A DNA stretch of 64,000 nucleotides, taken from positions 10,168,001 to 10,232,000 of the forward strand of contig OZ231126.1 of the NCBI GenBank assembly GCA_965153355.1, in the 5' to 3' direction. A model generated the notes under the pieces. The model was not told the DNA's origin, made no database searches, and worked only from the letters and a program-made list of their open reading frames with translations. Positions 4,711-46,416 of the stretch are shown here, piece after piece. Both the position numbers and the translations under genes were made by a program. The stretch's first letter is position 1. Each line of letters starts with the position of its first letter. The DNA comes from Flaccisagitta enflata. Lineage: Eukaryota.

Positions 4711-4909
4711 AACAAGGCCGGATACACGGCTACCCCAGTCGCGTGCGGGTGGGCAAGGGCTGTAATTGAGGTCACCAGATCATTTGGGCAGGAGCAGTGA
4801 AGCCAAAAACCGCAAAATCCAAAAGAAGTAAAGTGTGACGGACGGACCGACGGACGGACCAACGAACCGACAAAGCGGGGTGTAGAGTCGCGTAGCATGC
4901 GACTAAAAA
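4711..4909 (-). mobile_element. HINE-like element (AGTCGCGT family)
   Basis: 5' hairpin agtcgc..gcgact, GTCC microsatellite, 3' subTIR acgcgact, terminal hairpin gccg-tgtatc-cggc followed by cttgtt. Confidence 0.75.
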
Positions 4910-5296
4910 TATAATCATAATTTAACTAAATGATATAAAGTCAGAATCTCGCATCATCTTTTACCGGAGTAGGAATTGATAATGTCCAAAAGTGAAAAAA
5001 TGAGTGTTTCAGACGCTTTTCGAGTATGAATTTGTGTAGAGGGGTGGGCGTATGGTGTGGATAGAGGTTGGACGCCCCTGCCCACCCGTCCGCAACGATA
5101 TTGTGACCCCGCGTCAGTTGTTGACTGTTTTCCACACTTATGACAATTTTATAATTGACACAATTAAACAAAAACTGTTTTAATAAGGCTTTGTGACGAA
5201 TGGACCGAAAAGTGGCTTACAAACTTTCCGCCCCAGCCCCCACCCAACCGCGACAAAATTGTAACGCCGGGTTACAAATTTTCATAAAATACCGAA

Positions 5297-10289: not shown

Positions 10290-12605
10290 GCAGGGTTGTG
10301 TGACATACATTGGAGGATACAGGGCTGTGTGACATACATTGAAACAGAATAGGTGGTGTGACATACATCAAAAAATACAGGGCTGTGTGACATATATAGG
10401 AAAAAAACTGGGTGGTGTGACCTACAATGGAGAATTCTGGACTGTGTAGTCTGCATATCTCATGGATAGACAGAAATTGGTGGCTTTTTTTAAATGATGC
10501 ATAACTTTTGACCAGTCTTGTGATAATTTCTGAAGAGGGAATATTTCTTTAGAAATTTAAAGGATAGTTGTGATGGGTCCGGATTAAACACCAGTGAGAG
10601 CTCCAAAGGCTCTCATCCTTTATTAAAGTAGGGTTGAGTAGTAATGTTGTCCAACTTTCATACATTGGAGAAAACTGGGTGGTGTGATATACATCAGAGA
10701 ATTCTGGGCTGTGTGACATACATCAGAGAATTTTGGCTCTGTGACATACATCGGACAAAAATAGGTAGTGTGACATACATGGGAAAATTTTGGGCTCTGT
10801 GAAATATATCAGAAAAAACTGGGTGGTGTGACATACATCAGAGAATTCTTGGCTGTGTGACATACATTGGAAAATTCTGGGCTGTGTGACATACATCAAA
10901 GAATTCTTGGCTGTGTGACATACATTGGAGAAAACTGGGTGGTGTGACAGACATTGGAGAAAACTGGGTGGTGTGACATTTATCAGAAAATTCTGGGCTG
11001 TGTGACATACATCGGAGAAAACTGGGTTGTGTGACATACATAGTCAAATTCTGGGCTGTGTGACATATATCGGAGAATTCTGGGCTGTGTGATATACATT
11101 GGAGAAAACTGGGTGGTGTGACATACATCCAAGAAAACTGGGTGATGTGATATACATCGGAGAATTCTAGTCTGTGTGACATACAATGAAGAAAACTAGG
11201 TTGTGTGACATACATCGGAGTAAACTGGGTTGCGTGACATACATCGGAGAATTCTGGGCTGTGTGACATACATCGGAGAAAACTGGGTGGTGTGACATAC
11301 ATCAGAGAATTCTGGGCTGTGTGACATACATTGGAGAAAACTGGGCTGTGTGACATACATTGGAAAAAACTAGGTGGTGTGACATACATCGGAAAAAACT
11401 AGGTGGTGTGACATACATCGGAGAATTATGGGCTGTGTGACATACATCGGAAAAAACTGGGTGGTGAGACATATATCGGAGAATTCTGGGCTGTGTGACA
11501 TACTTCGGAGAAAACTGGGTGGTGTGACATACATCGGAAAATTCTGGGCTGTGTGACATACTTCGGAGAAAACTGAGTGGTGTGATATACATCGGAGAAT
11601 TCTGGGCTGTGTGACATACATTGGAGGAAACTAGGCTCTGTGACATACATCGGAAAAAACTAGGTGGTGTGACATACATCGGAGAATTCTGGGCTGTGTG
11701 ACATACATCGGAAAAAACTAGGTGGTGTGACATACATCGGAGAATTCTGGGCTGTGTGACATACATCGGAAAAAACTGGGTAGTGTGACATACATCAGAG
11801 AATTCTTGGCTGTGTGACATACATCGGAAAAAACTAGGTGGTGTGACATACATCAGAGAATTCTGGGCTGTGTGACATACATCGGAGAAAACTGGGTGGT
11901 GTGACATACATCAGAGAATTCTGGGCTGTGTGACATACATCGGAGAAAACTGGGTGGTGTGACATACATCAGAGAATTCTGGGCTGTGTGACATACATCG
12001 GAAAAAACTAGGTGGTGTGACATACATCGGAGAATTCTGGGCTGTGTGACATACATCGGAAAAAACTGGGTGGTGTGACATACATCGGAGAATTCTGGGC
12101 TGTGTGACATACATCGGAGAAAACTGGGTGGTGTGACATACATTGGAGAATTCTGGGCTGTGTGACATACATTGGAGAAAACTGGGCTGTGTGACATACA
12201 TCAGAAAAAACTAGGTGGTGTGACATACATCGGAGAATTCTAGACTGTGTGACATACATCGGAAAAAACTGGGTGGTGTGACATACATCGGAGAATTCTG
12301 GGCTGTGTGACATACATCGGAGAAAACTGGGTGGTGTGACATACATCGGAGAATTCTGGCCTGTGTGACATACATCGGAGAAAACTGGGTGGTGTGACAT
12401 ATATTGGAAAATTCTGGGCTGTGTGACATACATCGGAGAAAACTGGGTGGTGTGACATACATCGGAGAATTCTGGGCTGTGTGACATACTTCGGAGAAAA
12501 CTGGGTGGTGTGACATACATCTTAGAATTCTGGGCTGTGTGACATACATTGGAGAAAACTGGGTGGTGTGACATACATTGGAGAATTCTGGGCTGTGTGA
12601 CATAC
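10290..12605. repeat. 29-bp satellite with alternating A/B monomers (58-bp dimer), sacsin intron 2
   Basis: tgtgacatacatcggagaattctgggctg alternates with tgtgacatacatcggagaaaactgggtgg. A unique stretch interrupts it at ~10445-10660. Confidence 0.95.
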
Positions 12606-12622
12606 AAAAAAACGTTACGCAC

Positions 12623-15600
12623 GTTGCGGAGAAATCTCTGAAACTTTAGTGTTCCACTATCGTGGAACACAACAACATGACAGGCCTGAACCAGCTGCAT
12701 CTCTTTGCCATCCTCAACCAGTACATAAGGCATTCCCGTAAGCTTTCCATCATCATATCGTGACAGTTTCTCTCCGTTGAGGAATTTGTAGATTGGTCCA
12801 AACGTCTCAGTTTCCCGTTCCTTTTCAGAGGCAATTAAATGTTCTAAGTGCATGATCACTTCACTTGCTGATGGTTTTTTCCTGATTCCCAGCTTGTCTT
12901 GGTAGTGTCTGCATTTTTCAAAAACATTCGGTGGCAGGACATTGCAAGTTGCTGAGCAAACTGAATAATGCCAAGGAACAACGGAATTTTGTAATGGTTC
13001 TTTTCTACCCTCAATCAATATGAAAGGGCAGGTGCTGAATGTGTTCCAAAAATGATTAGGAAAATCATGAGCGCCAAAAAAGACCTCATCCAAAATTAGC
13101 ATCTGTAGCTTTTGATGTTTTTCCTCATCGAGGTTATGGTCCTTCAAAAGTTCACAAAATTTGTGAATGATGCTGACATCACACACCATTTTCACACCAT
13201 TTTGTTCAAGAGCTTCCAAATAGTTAGTTCCCTGATAGATTTCAGGTACTGACAAACCCAATTTGAAGAATGAATCAAATTCGCGTATCAAACGAATTTG
13301 GTGATGGTAAAACTCAGAGCCATGTCTGAATTGTCCATTCCTTTCAATTATGTTAGTGCACGCCACCCTGTCCATGAACTTTGCCTCGTGTTCATTATAT
13401 TTTGAACATTTCAACTTCAGATATCTTACCTTCAAACTCATCCTTAGAATGTGTGTCAATCTTTCATCGGGGGTAAGGCACTTGAAAGCAGGGAGAATAA
13501 ATTCTGAATAGACTTGTTCGGACTGGTAGTATTGACAATCCATCAGTTGGTAAAATTCTCGAAAGTGAGTCATTTTTAGGATAGCGATGTTCTCAGGAAT
13601 CCATTTGCTGATGTCCTCTTTGTCAAAGTCTCCACCAGGAAGTATAATGGGGTGTTTGTTTTCAATAGACTCAAATGTTCCACCAACATTTTCAAAAATG
13701 TGAAGTTTTTTCAGAGCTGCGATTAACTTTTTATCAAGATTTCGAGCTCTGTAATTGAGGTATTTCAGAATTGAAGCCACCAACTTTTTTTGAGTAGGCT
13801 TTTTTGATTGGGATGAATGGAGCTTTTTTGATTCAACCAATTGGGATTCAAAAATGGGCAACATACTTTCAACATCGTCGAGATGAGCAGAAATTTTCTG
13901 AAGCATGTGATTGCCTGATCTCAGGAAAAAGATGTCGCAATCATCTAATATTGAAAGAAGGTCATCAACTAGGGTGGGTGAAGCACATACAATCTGGTCA
14001 ATGTTTTGAAGAGATGTTAATTCAACTTCTTTTCCTTTTCTTCCCTGAGTGACAGGGATAAGGTTGAAAGTCTTAACAAGTTGCAACTGGGATAATATGG
14101 AAGTTCTATCCATCTTGCTCTTTTTCTTCTCAGGTGAAATACTGCTGTCAAAAAAATGCCATATTCTCTCATGCAACTGCTGTGTTCTCGGCTCAGAGTC
14201 ATTCCACAACTTTGCGAAGTCTTCAATGGTGAAGTCATTGAGAGGCTGAACTGTAAGTATGCAAGTGCCTCCATGATCCAATTTTGTTCCTGATGTCTCT
14301 TCCTTCAGTAGACCTGTGGCAACTACTTTGTGGACAAATTGGTTCAGTTGGTTGGGAAGAAGGTCTGGAAATAAAGTCAGGAAGACTTTCTGGTCAAAAT
14401 ATCTGAGAACACCATCTTGAGTGATGTTGAGAGGCAAGCCAAGTAAGGACCTGGGTAATTCATCTGAGCAGATATATTGTAGGACATCTCTGACTGTGCT
14501 TTCTTTTTCAAATGGCGTAGTTTCCACAGCCTGTGGCAAAGACAGCTTAAGCTTTGTTGGTGACATTTTCAGGAAAAGTTGCTGGAGATGTGATGGATGC
14601 ATTGCTGCAAAACCTAATCCAATCAAATCGTCATCAGAGAGGAACAAAGGCTGCATACATGACAAGAAGGATCTTTGTAGAGCTGGGACATGAATAATGG
14701 GGAGACCAAGATTTCTCAGAAGTGCTTGATGTTCTGCACTCAATCCCACGCAGAAAAATCCCTCAGAACCATCATAGTTTAAATCATTCCCAACAGCTGT
14801 TACAAACGACTCAATTTCATGGTCATTTTGCCCAACACTGTGCTGCCCTTGAATTGGGAAAATCCCCATGTTATGCTGCTTTACAACACGGAAGAAATTT
14901 GTTTGCAAGGTTTTCCAGTTTTCATCCAGTTGCAACCTTAAAGGAAATAGGGTCCAGTACTGTTCAAAGGGTAAATCATTTGCCAATTGGGAAACCTCTG
15001 AAATAAGCAAAGCATAGCACTTTGGAATTAAAAAGTTCAGAAGAAGTTCATTCCATTTTGAGTGATAAGTTCTTTCACTTGATCGCCAAAGATACTGTCT
15101 TGTTGCATCAATTGCAAAATGGCCATGTACGTGAACTGGCAAGTCCGTCAATATTGGTAAAGGAAGAAAACAGTAAGCTTTCCCTTGAACTGAGCCTTTG
15201 ATCTTCAAGGCCACACCAGCTCTTGGGGTTAGACCCAATTTCTTGTCCCTGTAGGCTTCCAAAATGGAGTCATCTGCTTTTGTGTCATTTCCAAATGATT
15301 GTAAAATCAACCAGTTGCTGGATTCCTTTTCAGAGCATTGTTTTCCTAATGTGAGTTCAGCTTTGTAAATTGTGTGGCGGAATGGCATTTCATCCAAATT
15401 TTTAGAGCCATTCACCAGCAGTGAACTTTGCTCATTGGAATGCTTTAGGAATTGATAGTATTCATTGCAATTAGAGGGTTGGATCACCATCATTAATGCA
15501 AATTCTTCAGTAAGAACGCTTTCATCTTTTGAGAACAGCTTGATTTCTCTAATGTTCTTCAAAAAAAGTACAGCTTCAGATGCTTGCTCTTGAAACTTTT

Positions 15601-18600
15601 TCATCAGGCCATCCACAGTATTGAGGCTTACTTGCTCACCTATTTTTGAAACATGACTCCTCAAGGGAAATCTGAACATGGTGGCACCTTGGAGAGGGAA
15701 CTCTTCCCCAGAGACATGAAAGCTGTTGTAGACACTGCTGTACTGTTCCTTCCAGCCTAATCCCTCAAATAACGCACCTGGGGATTCTTTATCCGCACCA
15801 GGAACGTATTGGCAGAGTGGATCCATAATGCACAATTTCTCGTCATTTGTTAGGAATGAAGGTACATCTGTCAGGTGGTATACTGAATTAAAACCAACAC
15901 CAAATTGCCCAGTCTGGTTAGGATCATGACTTTTTGATCCAAGACCTACCTTTTGAATTCCAACCAAATCATCATCAGTAAATGGCTTATCATTATAAAC
16001 CAATAAAGCAGGTTTTTGACATGGCTTGTAAGAGTCTGAGAAGATTTTTTCAGTCTCGAGGCTGCGTGAGTCTAGGACAAAATGTATTTTTGTAGCTCCA
16101 GCATCATCTGCATTTTGAATAAACTCTTTGAAAATTCCCCAGTCTAAGGGGTAGCTATCCAGAACATTTTTCAACCGGGTTATGAGGTCCACCTTTTGAC
16201 CAAATTCCTTGAAAAAAGGAAGTTTCTTTGCAAATCTTTTTATTATGCATTCAGTTTTATCTGGAATTTTCAGATACTTTGCTAATTCAGGCGACATTTG
16301 TAAGGATGCTCTTTCAAGTCCATCACCTTCAAAACCTAATTCACCAACAGCAGAATAGTACAAACTTGAGCTGCACCTCAATGAATTGTCATAAGCCAAT
16401 GCAGGAACAGCCTTTTTGAGCACATATCCCTTACTATGCAAGTCATTCAGAGCCTGAAGAATGGTCTTTTGATCTTTAGAGTTGAGTGGGAAACATCCAT
16501 TCTTCTGAATACAATCTATGACTTCTATAAGCATTTCTGGACTTGGTTGAGTAGGAACAACTGCATGGAGGAAATGGCGACATTTCTTTTTATCAATATC
16601 AGGATGTATGGCAGATATCCATGGTTCTAACACACCAACAGCTTCTTGAACGACATGACCCATTTCCCTCATACCTTGATTAGTAAGAAGTACCTTCTTT
16701 TCTGCCAAGAGACTCTTCAACATGTTTCCATCTAGCTTTTCTTCAGAAAACCATGCATAAACCTGTTCACATGTTTCAGCACAAAATTTGCCATCATAGT
16801 CAGCTTCTAATTTGGCATCAAGTTGTGTTAAGACTATTTCTGGACTTAACTCTTGCTTGACTTGAAATATGTGTTCAAAACGCTTAACAGCATTTTGTAC
16901 AGCCTTGCTTTCCTTAGAATAACGACTGCTGTCAAAGATTGGCTTTACAAGGTCAGCCAAAGGAGCCAAATGGGTAGACAACATATCCTTGAGTTGACAA
17001 ATATTTGGGACATTTGGGATGTCTTTGTTTGATGGAAAAATAATCACTGCTCTTTGTATTTTTTCTACAATGTCGTGTGGGGGATCTGATTGGAATTGAA
17101 ACAGATTGTTGACCATCAAATCAATGACTAATGAAGATGCTTGCTCAGCTCTCTTTATTTGGTCAGTAGTCATTCTCTCAATGTTTGCAACTATGCTCCC
17201 AATCTCATCCCAAGTAAAGTCTGACGCAGCATGTTTCATTCCAAGTTCTGACTTTAGGTTTGTTCGTGCTGTATCAGAGAGTTGAATCGTAGGGAACATA
17301 CTTTCATCATTTAGAAAAAGGTCTGCATATTTTGATGTGGGATCAACAGTCTCATTCGGCAGTTTCAGCATGGCAGTTGTTGGAATGCATCTGGTTGTTG
17401 CAATGGTTGTTTTCACAAAACTGTCAGTTAAAAGTTTACCAAGAATGGACTTTGTTCCCATCTCCTCCAACACAGCACACATGAGCTCAGAAATCATATT
17501 TCCCGGGAAAGAGATGATGTGCTCGAAAAAATATCCAAGAATATGTTTTCCTGTTACGGTGTTGTCATCATGAATGAAGTTTGCCTTAGAAAACGAACCC
17601 ATCAGTGAGCTTGCTTGAATGATGGTGCAGGAGGTTTTTGAGACAATTGTTTCAGCATACTTGCTCAGATGTTCATCACCAGAGATGTCACCACATGGAA
17701 AACTTGATTTGGAGTATGATACCCACTTTTTGTGGACAGCACTAAAGAAAATTGCCAATTCTGTGTCAGATTTGATTGTTGAATAGAAGGCATTAACAAG
17801 AGGCTCCCAAGTTTTTGAAAGATCTTGGTCATATTGTGGCCAAACACTGAACCAATTGGATGGATCAAAGACACTCATATTGGTCATTATCTTTAATGCT
17901 GAAACTAAAGCTTTTTGCACTGGGTCACGCAAAATCACATTGTTCCAAATTCCTGGGTTCCATGCATCACTTTTCTCATCTATCGTGGATTTCTTTAACT
18001 CCCTTCTGTTTGATGTTACGGAGAAATATCCGTTGATGTGGAAGGGAAAAGGATTTTCAATTGGCAAAGGCAGAAAACAGAACGTGAGGGAGCAATCAGA
18101 TGCATAGGTAGACGTTGGAGTCAGAGCCATGGGCATGAATCGATCTTCATTTTTAGACAAAGAAATTGCAATTCCTCCTACTGAAATGAGCTTTTCCTTG
18201 GGATGATCTTTCACCATTTGCAATGATTCTCCAGCGCTTATGCATGTTGATGTTAGCCAGTAGTTTTTCTTTTTGTGAAGGGAGGTAAGGTTATTAGTGG
18301 GTAGGCAAGCTTTCTCACTATGTGTCGTTTCAACCTCAAGAATCAATGCAACCTCATTATCTATTGGATGTTCTGCCTTGGTGCATTTCTGCGCGGTCCT
18401 CAAGATGGCCAACTGCTCAAACAGTTGTGAATTGTCGCAATCTTGATTATGAGACGACTTCACATCTTCAGGAGACTGGAGTTTCTTCATAACTTGGCAC
18501 AACCTTTTCTCAACGCTGAAATTCAAATTTTTCCCCGCATTTTTGGCATCTGAAGGAATCATGGAGACAGAGAACTTGCAAACTGTCTGAGTGAAGAGCA

Positions 18601-19139
18601 AGAGGCTGTTCAGTTGAGCCTTGGTAGTTTCTAAGAGTGACATCATGGACTCATGATCATACATAGTCGCTGATATTTTAGACTTTGCCGCTTGATCAGA
18701 ATTACGCAAGGGGAACCGCAAAAGAGTCCCTGGCATGACATCTTGATCCTTCGTTAGATTGCAACCGCAAATGCCATCGAATGCGATTAATTGATCGTGA
18801 TATTTCTTGAGATTTATTTTCTGCAGAGGTACTGTGACACCTGTCTCTGCTTTCTTGAGATAACCCTCTTTCCTCTTCTCACTATGAGGATCTAAAACCA
18901 AAAGTGTGTTGCCACTTAGAATGTGAGGGACGTCAGTCATGTTGTAAACGGCGTTGAAACCCAGTCCAAACTTGCCAACTTTGCCTAAATCATCCTCTTT
19001 TGTCGCGCCGCCCAACTTTTTCAGATTTTGGAAATCATGATCTGTGAATCTGGCGTCGTTGTACGCCAACAAGGCGGGTCCTTGAAGTTCTACCATTTTT
19101 GGACCAAGCATCTTCTCTGGTAGAGTGTCGATGGAGCGC
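12623..19139 (-). CDS. SACS: Sacsin-like gene, coding exon 2 (6.5 kb; two sacsin repeating regions with Hsp90-like GHKL ATPase modules)
   Basis: Repeat 1 motifs: QGPALLAYNDARFT, GKFGLGFNAVYNMTD, GTLLRFPLR, FCFLPLP, PFHINGYF. Repeat 2 motifs: EFGQKVDL..EFIQNADDAGA, GQFGVGFNSVYHLTD, ATMFRFPLR, LPVHVHGHF. Acceptor ttttag|G at 19139. Donor AAC|gtgcgt at 12623 is inferred. Confidence 0.93.
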
Positions 19140-19629
19140 CTAAAAGACCAGAGTAACAAGAACATGGCAAGATGCTCAACTAAGTCACGTGCCAGTGGGC
19201 AGGGGCAGTTATCAACTAAGATTATCATATGGAAAGACTCAAAAGACTGGCAAGACAAACAAGAATTCATAACTGATAAAAAGTGTCCAAAACACTACTG
19301 GACCAACTGACAACAAGTGACGCGGGTTCACAATTTTGTTGTGGATGGGTGGGCAGGGGCATCCAACCCCCATCTCTCAGTGCACATAAAAAAATACATG
19401 AAAAGTATCGAAAAGCTCGTTTTCCCCACGTTTCAATTCGATCATTACCAACGCACCAATGGACCAACAAACGCACAGACTAAACCTCTTTCAGAATCCC
19501 CATAGAAGAAAGCAGAAACAAACTTCAAAAATGAGTATGGGGGGGGGGGAACTAAATTTTATGCAGGCCTGCTGTCACGTCATAGATGACATTTTAATTA
19601 GATATCGGTCATTACAGGTAAACCAGTCC

Positions 19630-20103: not shown

Positions 20104-20197
20104 TGAGACATAAGACATTCTTGAGAATAGCTAGGGATAGATGTAAAATACATGATGCGGGCTCATGCGCCGCGCCATACGAATTAACTCAACTTAC

Positions 20198-20370
20198 ATG
20201 TCATAGATGAGTTCGACTTGGGTCGCTCCGGCGTCGTCGGCGTTTTGAATGAGTTCCTTGGGAATGGCCAATCCATCGCTGTATTCTTCCAGCAGACGAT
20301 TGATGCGCTGCGTCAGCGGCTCCGATTGACCGCCGTATTCAAGGCCATCCTCGTCGGAATCCGACGACAT
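20198..20370 (-). CDS. SACS: Sacsin-like gene, coding exon 1
   Basis: Manual translation MSSDSDEDGLEYGGQSEPLTQRINRLLEEYSDGLAIPKELIQNADDAGATQVELIYD, then AT|gtaagt. Phase 2 joins exon 2 in frame (M-R-S-I-D). Confidence 0.92.
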
Positions 20371-20616: not shown

Positions 20617-21390
20617 AATAGTCGCAAAAGCGTTAGATGGTCAGCGGTACCCGTTGCCCCTGTAAGTGTGTGGATGTGTGATGGTGAGAGGGGCAGTGGC
20701 CCCGAAGGGGCCGATGACCTATGCTGTTTTATTGTTTTGAACCTTGGACCAAGATTTGTGCTTTAAGGCTGGAATATGGGATTTCAGCTGAAAGGCTAGG
20801 ATTTGGGTCTCAAGGCTGCGATTTGGGCTTTGAGGTTAAGATTTGGGCTGGAATTGGGGCCATGTGGCCGGATATCTAGCCTCAAGGCTAGATTCTGGGT
20901 TTGAGGCTCGATTCTGAGCCTTGAGGCTGGATTTTAAGCTTTGAGGCTGGAATTTGAGGCCTGAAGCTGGAATATGAGCCACACGGTTGGAATTTGAGCC
21001 TCGAGGCTGGAATTTGAGTCTCGAGGCTGGAATTTGAGACGCGAGGCTGGATTTTTGGGTTGAACACTAGATTTGAGGGTCAAGGATGTGGACAGAGAAG
21101 AGGAAGAAGAGGCTGGAAAGGCTGGATTCTGGGCTTCAAGGCTCAATTTTGAGCCTTGAGGCTGGAATTTGAGCCTCAAGGCTGGAATTTGAGCCTTGAA
21201 ACTGGAATTTTAGCTTCAAAGCTGAAATATGAGCCTCAAGACTGACAATTGAGCCTTGAGGCTAAATTTTGGGCTTTAAGGCTGGTCGAGGGGGTGGACG
21301 GAGAAGGAGAAGGAGGAGGAGAAGAAGGAGGAGAATTTTCTCCTGTGTGAAAGCATAGGTCATCGGCCCCTTTGGGGCCGCTGCCCAAAA
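20617..21390. mobile_element. Non-autonomous element, family F (gggcagcggcccc subTIRs, central ~20-21-bp ggctggaatttgagcctc repeats)
   Basis: gggcagtggccccgaaggggccgatgacctatgct pairs with agcataggtcatcggcccctttggggccgctgccc. Inverted copy at ~50940-51598; partial copies at ~43890-44295 and ~51985-52230. Confidence 0.78.
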
Positions 21391-21522
21391 AGGGAAAAAG
21401 AGAGAGGAAGAGAGGGGAAGAGAGAGAAAAAGAGCAGGGGGTGTAAAAAATTGAGTGGCTTTTAATTTTAGTCCCCCCCTACATTTGATTTCCTTCCCCG
21501 CGTCGCGTTACAAAATCTTTGA

Positions 21523-22840
21523 TTTTAAGATGCGTCCTCGCATCTCTATAAGAGGGTCTATCTGTCCGTCTCTCCGTTACGCCTGTTCGAAAATCACTAG
21601 TATCCATCTCAAATCACCCAACAACCCCTCCCTATCATTTTTAGATGCGTCCTCGCATCTCTATAAGAGGGTCTGTCCGTCCGTCTCTCCGTTACGCCTG
21701 TTCAAAAATCACTAGTATCCATCTCAAATCACCCAACAACCCCTCCCTATCATTTTTAGATGCGTCCTCGCATCTCTATAAGAGGGTCTGTCCGTCCGTC
21801 TCTCCATTACGCCTGTTCGAAAATCACTAGTATCCATCTCAAATCACCCAACAACCCCTCCCTATTATTTTTAGATGCGTCCTCGCATCTCTATAAGAGG
21901 GTCTGTCCGTCCGTCTCTCCGTTACGCCTGTTCGAAAATCACTAGTATCCATCTCAAATCACCCAACAACCCCTCCCTATCATTTTTAGATGCGTCCTCG
22001 CATCTCTATAAGAGGGTCTGTCCGTCTGTCTCTCCGTTACGCCTGTTCAAAAATCACTAGTATCCATCTCAAATCACCCAACAACCCCTCCCTATCATTT
22101 TTAGATGCGTCCTCGCATCTCTATAAGAGGGTCTGTCCGTCCGTCTCTCCGTTACGCCTGTTTGAAAATCACTAGTATCCATCTCAAATCACCCAACAAC
22201 CCCTCCCTATCATTTTTAGATGCGTCCTCGCATCTCTATAAGAGGGTCTGTCCGTCCGTCTCTCCGTTACACATGTTCAAAAATCACTAGTATCCATCTC
22301 AAATCAACCAACAACCCCTCCCTATCATTTTTAGATGCGTCCTCGCATCTCTATAAGAGGGTCTGTCCGTCCGTCTCTCCGTTACACCTGTTCGAAAATC
22401 ACTAGTATCCATCTCAAATCACCCAACAACCCCTCCCTATCATTTTTAGATGCGTCCTCGCATCTCTATAAGAGGGTCTGTCCGTCCGTCTCTCCGTTAC
22501 GCCTGTTCGAAAATCACTAGTATCCATCTCAAATCACCCAACAACCCCTCCCTATCATTTTTAGATGCGTCCTCGCATCTCTATAAGAGGGTCTGTCCGT
22601 CCGTCTCTCCGTTACACATGTTCAAAAATCACTAGTATCCATCTCAAATCAACCAACAACCCCTCCCTATCATTTTTAGATGCGTCCTCGCATCTCTATA
22701 AGAGGGTCTGTCCGTCCGTCTCTCCGTTACGCCTGTTCGAAAATCACTAGTATCCATCTCAAATCACCCAACAACCCCTCCCTATCATTTTTAGATGCGT
22801 CCTCGCATCTCTATAAGAGGGTCTGTCCGTCCGTCTGTCC
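21523..22840 (+). repeat. 115-bp tandem array (~11.5 copies) built from the 5' terminus of an AGATGCG-family HINE-like element
   Basis: Near-identical units every 115 bp. Each begins ttttagatgcgtcctcgcatctctataagagggtctgtccgtcc, closely matching the 5' end of the dispersed copy at 6019. Confidence 0.95.
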
Positions 22841-22886
22841 GCCTGTCACGCGGAAGACCGGGGTTCGATTCCCCGCCGGGGAGCCA
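22839..22886 (+). pseudogene. 3' half of tRNA-Asp(GTC) ending in CCA
   Basis: ccgc-ctGTCac-gcgg anticodon arm, T arm cgggg-ttcgatt-ccccg, acceptor strand cggggag, then CCA. The 5' half is absent. Confidence 0.85.
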
Positions 22887-22889
22887 GAG

Positions 22890-23247
22890 TGTAACGAAGC
22901 CACGCCGTGCGCAGACAACTCATCACATGATTTAGCAACAACAACAGTTTGATACAAGAACCGTCTATCGTCGACGAAGCTGCATAGCCATGAATACATT
23001 TTCTTTCTTTTTATATTTAATTCTACTTTATTAGTGTACACGCGCGTGGACAAACTAGGCCACAACTACCCACTTCGTTTCGGTATGAATATTATCTCTT
23101 GCGGCGTAGTGTGTATTTTGTATCCAATGACATGATAATGATAATCGTCTATTCCTTATATTCAATAGAGCACCGCGTCACATCAAATGTGTGTAGTTCC
23201 TCGGCGTTGTGGTAGTGTGGGGGCCCAGAGAAGCCCTAATTCTCACA
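22890..23247 (-). mobile_element. Probable solitary LTR or LTR-retroelement remnant
   Basis: Minus strand reads TG... TATAA (~23160), AATAAA (~23030), ...CGTTACA end, then a 3-nt spacer and TGG-initiated tRNA complement in PBS geometry. The distal boundary (23182 or 23247) and the orientation are uncertain. Confidence 0.5.
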
Positions 23248-23436
23248 GTGCTCGAAACGTTGGCGCCGGAGACAACACACAGACGATGCCGATTGCGAAG
23301 ATGAGACTCAATGGCGGAAAAGAAGATTCAAGACGACTCTGAAATACAATACGCGATCGATAAAAACACATGCAAGAGGAGAAACAACCGAAGACTAAAA
23401 TCACGATCTCGCCGAGGACGATAAACATTGATTCAA

Positions 23437-23584
23437 CGCCGATTACAGAACAATGCCGATTACAGAACAATGCCGATTACAGAACAATGCCGATTACAAA
23501 ACAACGCCAATTACAGAACAACGCCGTTTACAAAACAATGCCGATCACAGAACAACGCCAATTACAGAACAACGCCGATTACAG
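23437..23584. repeat. 17-bp minisatellite (gccgattacagaacaat), ~8.5 copies
   Basis: Directly visible. Confidence 0.9.
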
Positions 23585-23626
23585 ATTACGCCGGTAAATG
23601 AAAAACGCCGGCGAACGAGACACACT

Positions 23627-23788
23627 GGTGACTGAATACGCCGCTGACTGAATACGCCGCTGACTGAATACGCCGGTGACTGAATACGCCGGTGACTGAA
23701 TACGCCGGTGACTGAATACGCCGGTGACTGAATACGCCGGTGACTGAATACGCCGGTGACTGAATACGCCGGTGACTGAATACGCCGC
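23627..23788. repeat. 16-bp minisatellite (ggtgactgaatacgcc), ~10 copies
   Basis: Directly visible. Confidence 0.92.
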
Positions 23789-24180
23789 ATCCCCAAGACC
23801 TTAGAAATGGGGTGTGCGGTGATGAAACACGCCGATGACGAAACACGCCAAGATAGAATACGCTGATGATAGAACACGCCAGTGACAGACTATGCAGAAA
23901 CTTCCACATCAAACGAACTTTGCGCTGCAGTTGATACAAAGCCAGATAGGCGGAAATTTCTCGACGATCCCTGCTATACGGCATCGGGTGCATCCAGATC
24001 GCCGAAGGTAGCATTGCGCCGGGGGAGAACAACACTGATTGCACAAAAGCTGTTACCGTGGAAACCGGGGGAGGACACGACAAACTAATAGAACAGGAGG
24101 AACACAACATTGATCAGGGGAGAACATGACATCGCGGCTTCTTATTTTTTGCTGCCGAGACTTCAGATGAATCCTGCGAC

Positions 24181-24843
24181 CATCTCAAATCACCCAACAA
24201 CCCCTCCCTATCATTTTTAGATGCGTCCTCGCATCTCTTGAGTTACGTGTCCATCCCCCGTATCTTTTTTTTGACTGCCTGGACTCTGCCCCCATCCCTC
24301 CCACCTCCAGAATCAGTTTTTTGATATTAGATTCTTTGAAATTGTTTGTCAATCTCATACAAATCTGAGAACATACATCGCGGTTCTTATTCTTTTGCGT
24401 TACGAGACTTCAAAGAACAGATCATCTCAAATCACCCAACAACCCCTCCCTATCATTTTTAGATGCGTCCTCGCATCTCTTGAGTTACGTGTAAACATCC
24501 CCCTGTATCTTTTTTTCTGACTGCCTGGACTCTGCCCCCATCCCTCCCACCTCCAGAATTCAGTTCTTTTAATATTAGATTCTTTGAAATTGTTTGTCAA
24601 TTCTCATACAAATCTGGTCTCTTACCATCATACAGTATTGGTTCTTGTTTCTTTATGTCGTTTAAGTATTACTTCAAAGAACAAGAAATGCATATTTTGT
24701 AAATTGGTATATTCATAGAATAATGCATTCTTTAACCATAAAAGGCAATGTTAACAAAAGAAACTGCAATATGCAAGATCCATAGAATTCTTTCTACATT
24801 GAGTTAAGTAGAGGACGCATCGTTGCCCAATTGGGCTTGTTTT
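24181..24843 (+). repeat. Two ~240-bp units starting with part of the 115-bp monomer, then the HINE 3' terminus
   Basis: catctcaaatcacccaacaac...gcatctc at 24181 and 24423. The 3' end aggacgcatc gttgccca-at-tgggc ttgttt lies at ~24812-24843. Confidence 0.8.
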
Positions 24844-25580
24844 ATCCTCAAAGCTATGAAGCAGTATATTTTAGGTTTTAATAGTGTTAAATTGTGTTGT
24901 AGTAATTACATTTTACCTTTTGGTACTGCCAAAAGTGTAAAATCTTCAAAAATTTTTTTTCTTTTTTTCAAGCTTTTGATTTTCTTCCCCATCTCCAAAC
25001 CATTTGATTTTAGTTCCCTTCCAACGGGGGGGGTAAAAAAACAACACATACATGGCAATCCAGTTGAGACAGTAGGGCAGGAGCGGTAATGCAAAAACCG
25101 CTCGCAATTCAACAAGGCCAACATAAATAACTAAAGATGACTTTTATTGACTCAAGATGACTTAAAATGACTCAGGACTACTTTAAAAGACTTAAAAAGA
25201 CCTAAAATGACTGAAATGACTACTTTGACCTATTTGACTTAAGTGACTTAAAATAAACTTAGAATGACTTAGAATGACTTAGAATGACATAGAATGACTT
25301 AGAATGACTAGAAATATCTTAAAGTATAATAAAAAAAGTAAAGTGTGACGGACCGACGGACGGACCGACGGACCGACGGACCGACGGACCGACGGACCGA
25401 CAAAGCGGGTTGTAGAGTCGCGTGCACGCGACTAAAAACAGAAACACGTGTGTTTGTCTGTCTGTCTGTCTGCCTGTTAGTCTGTGTCTCTGTCAAAGTA
25501 CTCAATGAGAGAGTGAGAGTAAGACAGAGAGACAGACAGAGAGAGAAAGAAGCAAGAAAATACAAGTGACTCGAAAGCTA

Positions 25581-26737: not shown

Positions 26738-28897
26738 GTGAATGAATAATAAGTTTGATGACTGTAAAAGTTCTGAACATTTAGAAAAAGTTCCAATTCC
26801 GGTGGTCTGGAAAAATGCAAATATTTCCCTTGAAGGTTTTCAATTCTTGCTTTAGCATTCTTAAGGAAACGATTACTTTCATTTATACATTGAGTATTTT
26901 TCATCTTTATGAAATAAATAAAGCCATGCCTTTATTATAAAAGGTTTTTGTTTACTAAATATAAAATAATAAACTTGAAAACGAAATTTTATTTCTAAAA
27001 TTTCAATACAGTCATGAATATAGCTATAAATGGGGATTGAAACTGAAACTCTGCCTTTGCGCCCCAACTTGAAACTGTCGTTTTTTGAATCTAAAGTTCT
27101 TGGAATGTGTCTGAAAATAATTGATTGTTTTTTTATGTTTGTTAGTCGCGTGCACGCGACTCTACAACCCGCTTTGTCCGTCGGTTGGTCGGTTGGTCTG
27201 TCGGTCACACTTCACCCTCGATTATAGGTGGAAATACAATGGAGTTTGAAAGGCAACTCCACAAATGCGGATGTTAATTTTAGGCCATAGGGTCAAATCA
27301 GTGTTTTATGAATTTCAGTCTAGTTTTCTATCACAATATCAAAAGTAGCATTTGAGAGTGGGTGCAATGTATGGAGGCACCAACAGACAGACAGACCAAT
27401 GTAGTGACCAACCATTGGAAAATAAAACTTCCTAAAAAGTTGCAAGATTGCAATTAAAAGCTAAATTGGGTTTTGCATAGAAACTTGATTTCAATCAAAC
27501 GCTAGATTCCTTTAGGCCATGCGACCTTACAGACGCAGCTCCATTTCATTACGTTTTCTCTATGAAAAAGCTCTCAGAGATAAATTTCACTCAAAGAATG
27601 AACTTTTAACCAAAAAACAACCAAATAACATCAAAAGACATCCGCAGTAATGGAGTTTTGCTCAAACTTTATTCTATTTCCATAAAAAAGCCAAATTGAG
27701 AAGCGTGACTTTACTTTTTTTATGATTTGTTTCTTTGACCTCACTGCTCCTGCCCAAATGGTCTGGTGACCTCAAATATGGCCCCTGCCCACCCGCATGC
27801 GACGTAGCCGTGTATCCGGCCTTGTTTTTCAAAAGAAATGAGCTTAGTAAAGTACAGAAAAACATAGCAACGCATGAAAAGGCGTAGGAAAGCATAGCTA
27901 GACTAGTCGGAAGATTTTCAGGAAAAATATCTGCTACTTGGAAGGAGAGCAGGATGTGTAGGTCTGCTCTCTCTCTCAGTGTCTCTATGTGTGTATGAAT
28001 TTGTGTATGTGTATGTCTCTCTTTGTTTTTTTCTTTCTCTTTCCCTTTCTATTCTCTTTCTCTCTCTCTCTCTCTTTCTATCTCTAAAGCAGAGTAAAAT
28101 GCAAAAGCTAGCATCATAAAAGTTTTGGTCAATTTGTGTAACATCTTGACTCTTCTCTATTGTTACATAGGGCCAAAAAATAGGATCAATGAAAAATTTC
28201 AATTTTTGAAAAATGTGAAAAAATAAAAAAAGATTAAAAAATTCATAACGCCAATACTAATGATCGTAGAGACTTCTGGTTGGCGCAATTTGAAAGAGGA
28301 AAATCAGCTCTTTCTTAGCTATGAATATCAAAAAATGTATCATCCCAGTCAGGAAATGGCTCAACTTTCTCAAATTCCTCAAATCGAAAATGGAAAACCC
28401 GATTTCTCCCCTACGTTTCAAAAAGTTGAATTATGTAATTCCCGATTTCTCCCCTACGTTTCAAAAAGTTGAATTATGTAATTCGACTTTTTTCCAATCA
28501 GTACTATTACATAAAGCAAAAAATTAGGATCTATGAAAATTAATGCAAAAAGATAAAAATAAATTAAAACAAGGCCGGATACACGGCAATCCAGTCGCGG
28601 ACGGTTGGGCAGGAGCAGTAATGCGAAAACCCGATTTCTCCCCTACGTTTCAAAAAGTTGAATTATGTAATTCGACTTTTTTCCAATCAGTACTATTACA
28701 TAAAGCAAAAAATTAGGATCTATGAAAATTAATGCAAAAAGATAAAAATAAATTAAAAAAATCGTAAATCAAAAACTATGGATTGCACAGAATTCTGCTT
28801 GGCGCCTCTGAAAGAGCAAAATCAGCTTTTTCTTAGCTTTTAATTTCATGACCAATTTGGCCCCCTAAACTTAAAAACTTTTTAGACGCCTCATGAA

Positions 28898-33100: not shown

Positions 33101-34168
33101 GAGAAATGGATTTTCTGAGAATTATTGAAATGAGAAAGACTCAGAAATAGCATTACTGAGACACGCCGATGTGACTGCGGGTGTTATGAAAAATGGCAAA
33201 GTTCAAGACGGTGAAGATATGTACATGTATAAAAGTCATGTATATGTGCGACCACAGACCACAATCATGAACTTCAAGCGGCACACAACAAAATGCCACA
33301 GCCCACAAGTAATGCAAGAGTAGTGTTCATTGTCGAAATTGACCCTCAAAATTGTTCTAACCTACGCGCTACGCTCGGGTGTGTCCATATGCAAAACGTT
33401 AATCCCTGAGAACATGATGCTAGGACATCATGAGGTTGCTCATTTTGAATTTAATGTCTTCACCGTTTTTCTTTTTTCAAATTTCTGTCATCTTCCGTTT
33501 TTTTCAAAAACCCTGTTTTGCCCCCAAATTTGCATAACGTTGTAATCATGTTTATCCATCGCCTTGTTATAGTGCGCGTTCCAATTAATTCAAAATGCTG
33601 CTATCCTCATTAAAGCTTCCCGGAAAAGTGTCTGGGTTAATCATATCAAATTCAATGAAACAGTAAGATGGTCTTTTCGGTTTATTAATTTGTTTCCTGG
33701 CGAACGAGAGTGCAGACATTGCATAAGATTTCGATCATGAAAAAACAAGGCCGGATACCAGTTGCGGCATGCGGATGAGTGGGCAAGGGCGGAAATGCGC
33801 GTTTTCCCACTTTTCGACTCGATCATTGAGGACCAGCGGACGGACCGACAAAGCCTCTTATAGAGTCGCGTGTCCGCAACTAAAAACGGGTGCCAATGGA
33901 ATTTTGGAAAAAGGAAAACGGCGATCGTTTTAAAATCGACTACCCCATCTATGCATCTTGAGTCAGCATTATGGTCTCAAACTCAGTCACCACCCGTATT
34001 TGACACGAGGCCGTATACACGGCTACCGAAGTCAAGTGCGGGTGGCCAGTGGCAGTGATAAAAAAGGATTACCAAGCATTTGGGCAGAAGCGGTAATGCA
34101 AAAAACGATGATCTGAGTTGCCCCGTCTTTATAAGTCTCGACTCATCTGCCGTATTTCCTGGAAATAC

Positions 34169-34616: not shown

Positions 34617-34782
34617 CATTTTACCATGGTTCCATGCGCTGTCTTAGTATTCCATACCTTTTGAATAATCGGTACCAATAAAGGCGGCTCTCGCCGACCG
34701 GAAAAAAGTCGTAAAAGGGAGTTTTTTTTTGTGCATATTCTCCTTTGTGTGTGCATCTCATGATGGTTGACTGCTTGTCTGC

Positions 34783-34969
34783 TTTTAGTCGCGTGCTACG
34801 CAACTCTACACCCTGCTTTGTCGGTCCGCTGGTCCGTCCGTCACACTTTTATTTTTTGGCGTTTATGGGGTTTTTGGCTATACCCCTTCTGCCCAAATGC
34901 TCCACTGACCTCGAATATGGCCCCTGCCCACCCGCACGCGACTGGGGTAGCCGTGTATCCGGCCTTGTT
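34783..34969 (+). mobile_element. HINE-like element (AGTCGCGT family); other copies ~25325-25437, 27143-27828 (split), 39538-39717, 42120-42310, 45700-45878, 52443-52706, 57540-57730
   Basis: Same 5' hairpin, GTCC tract, subTIR and 3' hairpin architecture. Inserted in T-rich sites with no TSD. Confidence 0.78.
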
Positions 34970-36641: not shown

Positions 36642-38245
36642 AAACAGACATAGACAAGAAGAAGTTGATTCTGATCTCATTTCAGCATTTCTTTTGGGAA
36701 AATACAATCTTGATTAACAAAATATGTATAACAGGTCGCCCAAGGGCAATATGTGGTCAGCGATACCCGTTGCCCTGCTTTGCCTGATTGTGAATTGATA
36801 GGGGAAGCAGGCGAAGTGCTCATAGGACGAGGTCCTGTAGAACACAGGGGGACTTTGTTCGTCCGCTTGTCCGTCCGTCACTTAGGGCTAGGCCTGAAAT
36901 TCTACCCTTCAGGCCTGAAATTCACCCTCAGGCCCAAAATCTGCCCTCTCAGGCTGGGAGGGGAAACATAAGGCCTGAGAGGGCCTGAGAGGGCCTGAGA
37001 GGGCGGATTTCAGACCTGAGAGGGCAAAATTCAGGCCTGAGAGGGCAGATTCAATGTCTGAGAGTGCAGATTTCAGGCCTGAGAGGGCAGATTCAAGGCC
37101 TGAAAAGGCATATTTCAGGTCTGAGAGGGTAAATTTCAGCCCTGAGAGAGCAGATTTCAGGCCTGAGAAAGCCTGGGGGGGACGCACGAATGAACGAACG
37201 AACGCACGAATAGACGAACGAAAGTCCCCCTGTGTTCTACAGGACATCGTCCCCTTCGGGGCCGCTGCCCAAAAAGCATTAAATATAAATGAAAAAGATG
37301 AAAAAAGTGACAACAGAATCATTAAAAGTATGGTAAATTGAAAAGAAAAATTAGTTCTACAGGACTTCGTCCCCTTCGGGGCCGCTGCCCAAAAAGGAAT
37401 AAAAAAAAAAATAAAAAGTCAAAAATGAAAAGTGAAATTAAATAAAGTGAAAAGTGTGAAGTGTAAAGTGTAGTAAGAAGTGAAAAGTCAAAAGTCAAAA
37501 GTGAAAAATGCAAAGTGAAAAGTGAAAAGTGAAAAATGAAAAGTGAATCATGAAATATAAAAACTGATGAAAATAACAAAAATGAATAAAGATAAGAAAA
37601 GAAAATAATCTTTTGATGCTAGAAAAAAAATTCTGGAGATTTTTACTTAATTTTAAAAATGATCACAGAAAATCCACTATGAATTCCCTAAATCTTACTA
37701 CTCCTTCAATGCCAAGTGAAAAACCTGAAAAACGCCAATGGGAAACTCATTTTAGCGCCAAATACGTTTTTGCGTCTCATCTGCCACTTCCGGTAGAGGT
37801 GGCGTATAAAATAGCGTATAGGTAAACTCTAGTGGATGATGGTCTGTTTTTGTCCAGAAAGCAATTTTAGGGCTTCTTGAGGTAATCTGGAGTAATGTGG
37901 TGTTAAAGATTTTCGAAGCAATGAGAAACTTCTCCATTTTTTTATGTTCAACTAACCATAACTTTTTAACGGCTTAACCAATGTTGTTGCGACAAAAAAA
38001 GAAAAGATGCGTCGTGAAAAATTCTACATTTTGGTCACCAATTTTTTGTTAATTCATCAAAAAACTAACAAGTTATGGCAGTTTGAATGAACAGATTGCA
38101 TGACAAGAAAATCCAATTATGAATCATTCAGAAGGAAGAATTTCATTCAAATTGAGATAACTTCTAAACCCATTGAGATAGCAAGATGCGGTTTGCGTAG
38201 ATGGCTTGCAAATTTAAAGGGCTTCACTTATCTCACAAATTTTTT

Positions 38246-39360: not shown

Positions 39361-40179
39361 TTAAAGTCTGGGGGTGTTTTTTTAGTAATTACATCAAAAG
39401 TCATAAAATATCATCTTATAAGGTTTCCTATAGTTAATATAGTATCTTAAATTGATAGTGCTCTAAGAACATTGAAGGCTTCATTTGGCCTCAAAAATAA
39501 GAACATGATGCCTTGAAAAAAATGATGTTCTTTTAAAAAACAAGGCCGGATACATGGCTACCCCAGTCGCGTGCGGATGGGCAGGGGCCATATTTGAGTT
39601 CACTTTATCATTTGGGCAGGAGCAGTGAGGCCAAAGAACGCAAAACCCAAAAAAAGTAAAGTGTGACAGACGGACCGACACAGCGGGGTGTAGAGTCGCG
39701 TAGCACGCGACTAAAAATGTATAGGATCTCACCATGGCCCAGGCCTGTAAATACTTAGTTTCTCCCCCGTGGGGGGAATCAAAGGGTTTAGAGTTGGGGG
39801 GGGGGGATTCAAAGGAGGAAAAAAGAAAAAAAAGAAAATTTGAGGAAAATACAATTTTTGACAATACCAAATCATAAATACTAATTAGTAAAACACAATT
39901 TAAGACTATCTAAACCTGCATTGTTTCTAGAACTGCATTGTTTTATTGCTTTATAAGGAAGAAAATCATAGATTATAAAATGCTACGCCTTGCGTCACGG
40001 GGAGGAAAATCAAAGGCGGGGTGGGGGGAGTCAAAAGCGACTCAATTATACACACCCATGCTGTGGCAAAAAACAGCCGAGAAACGCGGTTTTTGCACAG
40101 GCGTAACAGACGAGCGGACCGAAGGATCAACCAACGAACGGACAGACCCTCTTATAGAGATGCGTTACTGACGGGCAAA

Positions 40180-40325
40180 AAAACAAGGCCGGATACACGG
40201 CAATCCAGTCGCGGACGGTTTGGCAGGAGCGGTAATTCAAAGAACGATCGCAAGTTTAGAAATATTTGTGACGGACGGACCGACCGACACGGCAAGGTGT
40301 AGAGTCGCGTGTCCGCGACTAAAAA
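40180..40325 (-). mobile_element. HINE-like element (AGTCGCGG family); other copies ~28567-28628 (partial), 47673-47827, 58830-58994
   Basis: 5' hairpin agtcgcg-gaca-cgcgact, 3' subTIR ccgcgact, terminal gccgtgtatccggc cttgtt. Confidence 0.75.
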
Positions 40326-44100: not shown

Positions 44101-45161
44101 AGCTGGTATTTGAACTTAAAGCTTCAAGGATTTGAGCCTCAAGCCTGAGATTTTAACCAAAAGCTTGGGATTTTGGGTCTTGATTCTGGAATTTAGATCT
44201 GAAAAACGGGGAAGCGACATAAAAAGAGGAGGAGAAAGAATTGTTCCCTACAAGAAAGCATAGGTCATCAGCTCCTTTAGGTCCGCTACCCAAAAAGTGT
44301 TTCATGCTTGATTAGAGCTCAGCATCTGAAATTATCTTCTGTTGCAATTGCAAACGTCACTTCTATTTCAAAATCTTTAAATAGCATACATACCTTTATT
44401 GAAAGAATGTTTTACCACTTTTGTTCACTAAAACAGTGAAAACCAAAGAAATATGCTGGTCCGGGGCCTAAATGCTCATTCAGGGCTGGTCTCACCCCAG
44501 AATACTGGCCGTAGACTTTTCAGGCCATTTCCATTGAATTCTGGAGCTTCACAATAATTGGTTTTCAGGCGGTTTTACCTTCTATCCGAAAAACCTCCGA
44601 GAAAAAAAGCCAAAAAATGTTAGTTTTGAAGCGAAAACACTTGTGCCGGGGCTAAAATGCTCATTCAGGGCCATTTCTTAACTGAGATATTGGTCAAGGG
44701 ATCATTATAAGTGCACCATTGAACTCTAAAGCATCATTGTTGTTGGATTGAATCATTTTATAGTCATTTATTGAGCCAACATAGGCTATAACCGCAATAA
44801 AATGACAAAAATGCTCATTTTTGGGTCAAAATGCTCATTCAGGGCCATTCTGAAACCAAGTTCCCATTCAAGTGACCTTTATAACTTCACCATTAAACTC
44901 CAGACCATCATAGTAGTCGGATTGAATGAGATAACAGATATTTTTTGAACCATTACAGGCTTAAAATGCAATAAAATAGCAAAAATGTCCATTTTAGGGC
45001 CAATATGCTCGTTCAGGGCCGAGTAGGGGCCCAAATATTCATCATAGACCATTTTTGACTTCACCATCGGATTCCCCACCCTCAAATTGCTCTGGAGCCT
45101 GCCCAACCGGAGAAAAACTATACGACTTCTCATTTTTCATCATTTCCGAAGTATGTTACCC
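41171..45161. mobile_element. Kolobok-like non-autonomous DNA transposon (~4.0 kb) inserted into the LINE fragment
   Basis: TTAA TSD (41167-41170 and 45162-45165). Purine termini GAGTAATATCCTTC and GAAGTATGTTACCC. ~500-bp imperfect subterminal inverted repeats. Copy 1 shows the empty site (ccccttatgagtctgtg). Confidence 0.8.
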
Positions 45162-45480: not shown

Positions 45481-46366
45481 ATATATATTTCTATTAGATA
45501 CTGTCAGAACAAATGCTAAACAATAATGTCTGGGGGTGTTTTTTTAGTAATTACATCAAAAGTCATAAAATATCATCTTATAAGGTTTCCTATAGTTAAT
45601 ATAGTATCTTAAATTGATAGTGCTCTAAGAACATTGAAGGCTTCATTTGGCCTCAAAAATAAGAACATGATGCCTTGAAAAAAATGATGTTCTTTTAAAA
45701 AACAAGGCCGGATACCGGCTACCCCAGTCGCGTGCGGGTGGGCAGGGGCCATATTTGAGGTCACTTTATCATTTGAACAGGAGCAGTGAGGCCAAAGAAC
45801 GCAAAACCCAAAAAAAGTAAAGTGTGACAGACGGACCGACAAAGCGGGGTGTAGAGTCGCGTAGCACGCGACTAAAAATGTATAGGATCTCACCATGGCC
45901 CAGGCCTGTAAATAATTTAGTTTCTCCCCCCTCCCCCAGTGGGGGGGGGGGAATCAAAGGGTTTAGAGTTGGGGGGGGATTCAAAGGAGGAAAAAAGAAA
46001 AAAAAAAGAAAATTTGAGGAAAATACAATTTTTGACAATACCAAATCATAAATACTAGTTAGTAAAACACAATTTAAGACTATCTAAACCTGCATTGTTT
46101 CTAGAACTGCATTGTTTTATTGCTTTATAAGGAAGAAAATCATAGATTATAAAATGCTACGCCTTGCGTCACGGGGAGGAAAATCAAAGGCGGGGTGGGG
46201 GGGAATCAAAAGCGACTCAATTATACACACCCATGCTGTGGCAAAAAACAACCGAGAAACGCGGTTTTTGCACAGGCGTAACAGACGAACGGACCGAAGG
46301 ATCAACCGACGAACGGACAGACCCTCTTATAGAGATGCGTTCCTGACGGGCAAAAAAAAAATTAAG

Positions 46367-46416
<50 letters not shown>

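Follow-up and report, generated by a model that had tools for sequence, protein, structure and literature searches.

Mammalian tailless retropseudogenes were reportedly described by Schmitz et al. in 2004. According to Noll et al. 2015 (PMC5322556), these truncated tRNA retro-copies lack a poly(A) tail, have their ends in loops or single-stranded stretches and join their target via short complementarity, and truncated tRNA retro-copies are also mentioned elsewhere (PMC3747384). For non-autonomous Helentrons, the published description comprises a subterminal repeat at the 5′ side and its complementary inverted repeat, a GTCY, GTCC or GTCK microsatellite and central tandem repeats, while Helentrons have T's at their boundaries and insert at TT, between the T's and without homology (PMC4067079, PMC7492417). 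Here we analyze a stretch of 64,000 nucleotides from Flaccisagitta enflata (assembly GCA_965153355.1, contig OZ231126.1, positions 10,168,001 to 10,232,000 of the forward strand), hereafter the window, in which a CCA-terminated piece of tRNA-Asp(GTC) directly adjoins a tandem array with the architecture of such Helentrons. A preliminary description of the same DNA had regarded the piece as a possible fossil of retrotransposon priming, joined to the probable end of a long terminal repeat (LTR). On balance, we favor a different reading, namely that of a stray, 5′-truncated retro-copy of a mature tRNA-Asp, i.e. a tRNA retropseudogene fragment.

Identification of the tRNA-Asp piece

Direct reading of positions 22500-23700 revealed that 49 nt of the plus strand (22838-22886) have the layout of the 3′ two-thirds of tRNA-Asp(GTC), with exact tRNA spacing throughout (Table 1). 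The elements listed in the preliminary description, from the anticodon arm to CCA and followed by gag and TGTAACG, were all recovered within 1-2 bases of where it had placed them, and the minus-strand TATAA (23160-23156) and AATAAA (23032-23027) as well as TGGCGCCGG (23261-23269) were likewise present. A structural pattern made up of two stems of 5 bp, each closing a 7-nt loop, with U33, R37 and a T-loop TTC, and then 8 nt and CCA, matched the window once, at exactly this position, and matched none of 200 shuffled windows; the 13-nt T-arm motif, for which 0.08 occurrences were expected, was also found once. Folding of the 49 nt gave two hairpins (−16.9 kcal/mol), and because both 5-bp stems are fully paired, the piece looks young or undecayed. 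The Rfam tRNA model aligned 22814-22875, with the anticodon and T arms included, to its positions 8-63 with 24 bits (gathering score 29), corresponding to E = 0.0069 in a 301-nt search and E = 0.39 in a 17-kb search. Nothing in the window reached an Rfam gathering score, and ARAGORN returned 0 tRNA genes for the same 64 kb. Both the ARAGORN blank and the sub-gathering Rfam score are to be expected, as the piece lacks the 5′ half of a tRNA. We regard the tRNA piece as confirmed, far beyond what chance would supply.

The possibility of a full, degenerate tRNA extending over 22800-22886 was considered and rejected. These 87 nt adopt a cloverleaf-like fold (−31.4 kcal/mol), in which TCCTCG of the palindrome loop of the neighboring array unit pairs with the 3′ acceptor strand, and a 6-nt complement of this kind is estimated to arise in about 1 in 6 cases. 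The palindrome itself recurs in family copies without a tRNA part, and the fold is probably a coincidence. At a relaxed threshold, ARAGORN made only two calls, both of them implausible.

A mature tRNA as the probable source

Eukaryotic nuclear tRNA genes do not encode CCA, and RNA polymerase III genes normally end at a T run within a few to some tens of nucleotides. At this locus, CCA directly follows the discriminator at tRNA positions 74-76, and the first run of at least four T's after it is located at 22999, 112 nt downstream, which argues against a polymerase III gene. No tRNA 5′ half was found by ARAGORN or by Rfam at gathering score anywhere in the window, including the DNA to the left of the array, and an approximate A-box-like query with up to one mismatch gave 0 matches in the window. 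As CCA occupies exactly positions 74-76, the 5′ half is missing and no T run lies nearby, the derivation of the piece from a mature tRNA by reverse transcription is well supported, and the proposal of the preliminary description that a mature tRNA-Asp with its CCA tail, rather than an ordinary gene, gave rise to it is supported. The combination of mature-tRNA sequence including the post-transcriptional CCA with the absence of gene context (5′ leader or half, polymerase III terminator) is that of a tRNA retropseudogene. In a functional tRNA gene the cloverleaf would be complete, including the acceptor stem and the D arm, whereas the alignment here is confined to model positions 8-63. Likewise, a short interspersed nuclear element (SINE) derived from a tRNA would have a 5′ head with A and B boxes and occur in many copies, whereas the locus holds the 3′ part only and the T-arm motif occurs once.

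It is nevertheless conceivable that the piece is what remains of a genuine tRNA-Asp gene after the array or a DNA-level rearrangement had removed the 5′ half, with a CCA that is chance 3′ flank of the gene. The T arm and the anticodon arm are intact, transposons and arrays do truncate genes, and a chance CCA at that spot, estimated at 1 in 64, is not negligible over many tRNA genes; the prediction of this explanation is a tRNA-Asp gene with the natural 3′ flank CCAGAGTGTAACG. On the other side stand the 112 nt after the acceptor end in which no run of four or more T's occurs, the 5′ half that is found nowhere in the window, and a left junction that falls within seven shared letters, which a Helentron insertion between T's and without homology would not yield. 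We therefore consider a gene remnant improbable.

A Helentron-type array on the left

The DNA to the left of the piece is a tandem array, for which Tandem Repeats Finder (TRF) reported a period of 115, 11.5 copies and 97% matches over 21522-22841. In the manner of a HINE-like 5′ end, every unit carries a T run, a palindrome of 18 nt, CTCTATAAGAGGG and a short (GTCY)n microsatellite. A pattern search for this architecture recovered the 12 units of the array and 15 further matches elsewhere in the window, 14 of which keep the order of T run, palindrome, CTCTA.. and (GTCY)n, with unrelated DNA upstream. The 5′ subterminal repeat with its complementary inverted repeat, the (GTCY)n and the T-rich boundary are all present, and the architecture of the array is the published left flank of non-autonomous Helentrons (HINE or DINE-1-like elements). 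Like these elements, the array presents a boundary T run, a palindrome and (GTCY)n, followed by tandem repeats; it differs from them in that the 5′ end structures form part of the tandem unit, and in that a 3′ subterminal repeat or palindrome was not located (PMC4067079, PMC7492417).

The HINE-like family is abundant and interspersed in the window, with about 14 copies outside the array, a CTCTAyA.. motif, palindromes of 14-18 nt and at least three palindrome subtypes. Within the array, variants of the 115-bp unit recur every three units, with the same variant at 22234 and 22579 (22234-22808), a pattern that points to a higher-order repeat of 345 bp and to recent unequal exchange.

The junction of array and tRNA piece lies in the twelfth unit, which follows the unit consensus up to 22836 and then diverges from the other units into the tRNA. 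The seven contiguous letters CGCCTGT, equivalent to tRNA positions 29-35, are part of 8 of the 11 full units and of both related copies (46334 and 40159, minus strand); the related copies read ..GTCTGT-TA-CGCCTGT.. where the last array unit reads ..GTCTGT-C-CGCCTGT.. Because the letters around the junction match both the array and the tRNA, the breakpoint may fall anywhere within the junction zone given in Table 1; depending on the breakpoint chosen, 2 to 7 contiguous letters are shared, and the part that is tRNA only has a minimum length of 39 nt (22848-22886) and a maximum of about 50 nt. A junction of this kind, placed among shared letters, suggests that short homology served for the capture, either through end joining or through template switching. 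It is the trace expected of an annealing free DNA end and not of a Helentron insertion, and it fits the capture of a complementary DNA (cDNA) end whichever reverse transcriptase made the cDNA. These letters are the only insertion signature of the tRNA piece.

Sequence shared with the array is also found on the far side of the right flank, where two tandem copies of about 247 bp (24120-24367 and 24367-24616, 90.7% identical by blastn) each carry a 59-nt module, at 24180-24238 and 24423-24480, that is 98-100% identical to the array units. The same module occurs in 12 copies in the array (21528-22810), and thus on both sides of the tRNA piece in the same orientation. This arrangement would suit a composite HINE-like element, with the tRNA piece and the adjoining 1.3 kb on the right as its cargo between the 115-bp array and the 247-bp repeats; the whole would then be copied as DNA at other places, so that the tRNA fragment would be RNA-derived in origin but made at another site. 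Among oyster HINEs with two arrays, anonymous DNA of up to about 1.2 kb lies between the arrays in about 5% (PMC7492417). However, neither a closing 3′ subterminal repeat nor a 3′ palindrome was located at the locus, all 14 palindrome copies (14/14) face the same way, and no other copy of the cargo was found in the window. A composite element of this kind appears to us a rather remote explanation.

The right flank and the question of a long terminal repeat

Read on the minus strand, the DNA from 22890 on would be the U5 end (...CGTTACA, 3-nt spacer, TGG...) of an LTR retrotransposon primed by tRNA-Asp, and the locus would be a captured read-through product beside the array. Its plus-strand strong-stop DNA would have run about 21-31 nt past the stop at 1-methyladenosine 58 (m1A58), into the anticodon arm of the primer, and would have been captured illegitimately via the 7-letter match with the Helentron-type array; in a variant, the captured DNA would be such a strong-stop molecule as has been proposed to have given rise to tRNA-derived SINEs. 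The geometry agrees with this, since CCA, 3 nt and TG on the plus strand are equivalent to ...CA, 3 nt and TGG on the minus strand, and the minus-strand TATAA and AATAAA lie at distances plausible for an LTR. Furthermore, tRNA-Asp primes some Ty3/gypsy elements, e.g. Diaspora/Calypso, with an 18-nt primer-binding site (PBS) 5 bp beyond the LTR end (PMC1142308), and reverse transcriptase copies further into the primer tRNA once the m1A58 stop is lost (PMC8599865). The 3′ end of such read-through DNA would be the complement of the anticodon arm, where the shared letters of the junction sit, and would suit annealing. As tRNA read-through products are not normally integrable (PMC8599865), their capture would indeed have to be illegitimate.

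Comparisons within the window yielded nothing that supports this reading. Neither 22880-23440 nor 22841-25000 has another copy on either strand besides local tandem repeats and low-complexity matches, and the only non-local matches of the flank are of T/C-rich low complexity (best E 0.011). Pfam searches of 13 frames of at least 150 aa revealed no gag, protease, reverse transcriptase or integrase, but only SACS and two weak, unrelated matches; a minus-strand frame at 23586-24113 had no Pfam match, and the 23 frames of at least 50 aa in 22887-24700 were inspected by eye. No tRNA-Asp PBS-like 11-mer was found in the window besides the one at this site, and the side on which the PBS-proximal interior of an LTR element would lie is occupied by the 115-bp HINE-like array. 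The flank letters gave 0 matches to public contigs in two metagenome scans and one viral scan, which are weak tests, as exact matches were required and the organism may be absent from these collections. The spacing of CA, 3 nt and TGG is also accompanied by a complementarity to the tRNA of 39-49 nt, compared with about 8-18 nt for a PBS that follows the CA of an LTR end after 0-5 nt, and a TG at 0-5 nt from CCA is estimated to occur by chance in about one in three cases, while TATAA followed by AATAAA within 400 nt of DNA with about 40% G+C is, by estimate, not unusual. Since chance readily supplies such LTR-like motifs, they carry little weight.

Neither the two direct copies around an internal region nor the gag-pol coding beside a PBS that define an LTR element were found in the window, and the absence of paired copies is what the preliminary description itself had named as speaking against its proposal. 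Its alternative, a plus-strand LTR with a PBS at 23261, fares no better, as no second LTR copy follows downstream in the window. Nothing beyond a geometry that chance easily supplies speaks for the "probable LTR end", and we consider a priming fossil unlikely, although less so than a gene remnant or a HINE-like cargo. Under the reading as a stray retro-copy, we take the right flank for ordinary DNA present in a single copy.

Further identities of the right flank were rejected. Local alignments with five references of the HINE-like family, performed with a diverged family copy or a target-site duplication in mind, were no better than those of shuffled sequences besides T-rich low complexity, and no terminal inverted repeat partner, as a DNA transposon would have, was found for the flank on either strand.

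Neighboring gene and other features

To the left of the array lies a host gene. A large minus-strand frame of 2428 aa (12008-19294) matches Pfam SACS with E 1.3e-125, so that a minus-strand gag-pol, for which this frame had been considered, was ruled out in favor of a sacsin-like gene. Its first coding exon starts with the ATG at 20370 and ends in a GTAAGT donor. The tRNA piece, with its intact B-box-like T arm, is located about 2.5 kb upstream of this ATG; it is probably without function.

Among the other repeats of the window, a long array at approximately 10648-12500 lies just 3′ of, or overlaps, the end of the sacsin-like frame and repeats a 29-nt unit some 62 times, with 64-85% identity of the copies to a reference copy. 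A unit resembling a miniature inverted-repeat transposable element (MITE) at 20691-21386 has inverted ends of about 35 nt (20691-20725 and 21352-21386) around 20/40-nt tandem repeats of the GGCTGGAATTTGAGCCTC type, and relatives or end-like pieces were seen near 50941-51519, 51981-52028, 37245-37397 and 44254-44297; weak Rfam "miRNA" matches at this unit correspond to its repeats. Two inverted repeats of about 500 nt (41208-41706 and 44614-45113, 85-86% complementary, about 2.9 kb between them) may belong to a transposon with long terminal inverted repeats. Words from 21400-24100 are present in sequencing runs of the source organism and in marine metagenome and metatranscriptome runs; they possibly represent the array only and were not used as evidence of expression, habitat or copy number.

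Table 1 Features of the tRNA-Asp locus and its surroundings (window positions)
Feature	Position	Strand	Basis or remark
First coding exon of the sacsin-like gene	20194..20370	-	Translation MSSDSDEDG...; Pfam SACS E 4.2e-13, profile positions 1-41
Tandem array of a 115-bp unit, 11 full units and start of a twelfth	21522..22836	+	TRF, units aligned in register
Junction zone, letters fit both the array/repeat family and the tRNA anticodon arm	22837..22847	+	Units in register
Anticodon stem	22838-22842 with 22850-22854	+	5/5 pairs
Anticodon loop, 7 nt, GTC in the middle	22843-22849	+	Direct reading
Variable loop, 4 nt	22855-22858	+	Direct reading
T arm, 5-bp stem and canonical T loop	22859-22875	+	Direct reading
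3′ acceptor strand, 7 letters	22876-22882	+	Direct reading
Discriminator	22883	+	Direct reading
CCA, tRNA positions 74-76	22884-22886	+	8 nt from the end of the T stem, the mature-tRNA distance
gag, 3 letters between CCA and flank; filler, spacer or target DNA	22887-22889	+	Direct reading
TGTAACG	22890-22896	+	Direct reading
Single-copy flank, previously taken for an LTR end; no repetition or coding seen	22890..23433		Window comparisons
Two minisatellites, 17-mer x 8.9 and 16-mer x 13.4	23434..23787	+	TRF
Tandem pair of copies, about 247 bp apiece, both with the 59-nt array module in the same orientation	24120..24616	+	blastn
HINE-like copies, first part	4798-4957(-), 25328-25487(-), 27090-27249(+), 33776-33935(-), 34734-34893(+), 40070-40229(-)		Pattern search
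HINE-like copies, second part	42013-42369(-), 42494-42653(+), 45767-45926(-), 46245-46404(-), 52596-52755(-), 57620-57779(-), 59192-59351(+)		Pattern search

Proposed origin and comparison with known systems

From the CCA end, the missing 5′ half and the shared letters at the left junction, we infer reverse transcription as the maker of the piece, together with the direction of synthesis and the way in which it was joined. On a processed tRNA-Asp, a reverse transcriptase would have begun at the CCA end or next to it and would have copied some 40-50 nt up to the anticodon arm. The free cDNA end could there have annealed to a unit of the HINE-like array through short identity (7 contiguous letters), and break repair or template switching would then have sealed the cDNA into the chromosome. 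The enzyme may have been that of a non-LTR element, an LTR element or another reverse transcriptase. A 5′-truncated, stray retro-copy of this kind is the origin to which we incline, somewhat above even chances.

The closest relatives of such a copy are the tailless retropseudogenes, which are likewise RNA-derived parts of tRNAs, lack poly(A) and show short complementarity to the target (PMC5322556). Several points weigh against our interpretation, part of which emerge from this very comparison. The tailless retropseudogenes described there are mainly 3′-truncated and keep the 5′ end, whereas the present piece is 5′-truncated and keeps CCA; they are described as a trait of therian LINE-1 (L1; LINE, long interspersed nuclear element), whereas this genome is marine and non-mammalian; and they come with target-site duplications and an L1-type target motif (PMC5322556), whereas visual reading around the tRNA piece disclosed neither a target-site duplication nor another direct repeat. 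Moreover, several breakpoints fit the left junction, one of them with an overlap of 2 letters only, if the last unit had kept the GTCTGT form of the related copies, and the right flank is called single-copy on the comparison within the 64-kb window only. Finally, a small chance attaches to a tRNA-Asp gene with CCA as accidental 3′ flank as the source.

Chimeric insertions of tRNA and LINE-1 resemble the locus in that a half-length tRNA is fused to other sequence in one retro-insertion. They mostly comprise the 5′ half (1-37), antisense to LINE-1, and have 9-19-bp duplications (bioRxiv 10.1101/2025.02.02.635956), whereas the piece described here is a 3′ part and its flank contains no recognizable LINE partner. 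A retro-transcribed tRNA-Gly beside a provirus is a further instance of reverse-transcribed tRNA as chromosomal DNA, but was found in cultured human cells, next to a known provirus and with self-priming as the proposed mechanism (PMC12220202).

On the side of LTR elements, the PBS of Diaspora/Calypso shares with the locus a complement of the tRNA-Asp 3′ end a few nucleotides beyond a sequence ending in CA, although the complementarity there is 18 nt and is accompanied by paired LTRs and a gag-pol frame, whereas it amounts to 39-49 nt here and neither of the latter was found in 64 kb (PMC1142308). For human immunodeficiency virus 1 in TRMT6 mutant cells, the missing m1A58 stop predicts LTR DNA with more than 18 nt of tRNA complement; this read-through was demonstrated in vitro and in mutant cells, with no integrated fossil shown there, while at the present locus the identity of the LTR is only putative (PMC8599865). 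If the flank were an LTR end, the locus would constitute a rare natural, integrated record of a reverse transcriptase reading through the m1A58 stop of its primer tRNA. The strong-stop model of the origin of tRNA-derived SINEs, which is said to go back to Ohshima et al. in 1993, reportedly starts from a CCA-bearing tRNA to which the antisense U5-R of a retroelement is joined downstream. If the flank is an LTR, the locus would show this order and would exemplify the tRNA-CCA-antisense-U5 molecule postulated in that model as the SINE ancestor; SINEs themselves keep the 5′ promoter half and are multi-copy, whereas the piece is without its 5′ half and single in the window.

Overall, the locus is best filed as a CCA-bearing tRNA retro-fragment in an unusual setting. 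If it is a stray retro-copy, CCA-tailed 3′ fragments of tRNAs would occasionally become fixed in a marine, non-mammalian genome, here next to a transposon array to which short homology would have joined them, and this small curiosity would sit outside the mammalian L1 setting in which truncated tRNA retro-copies were catalogued.

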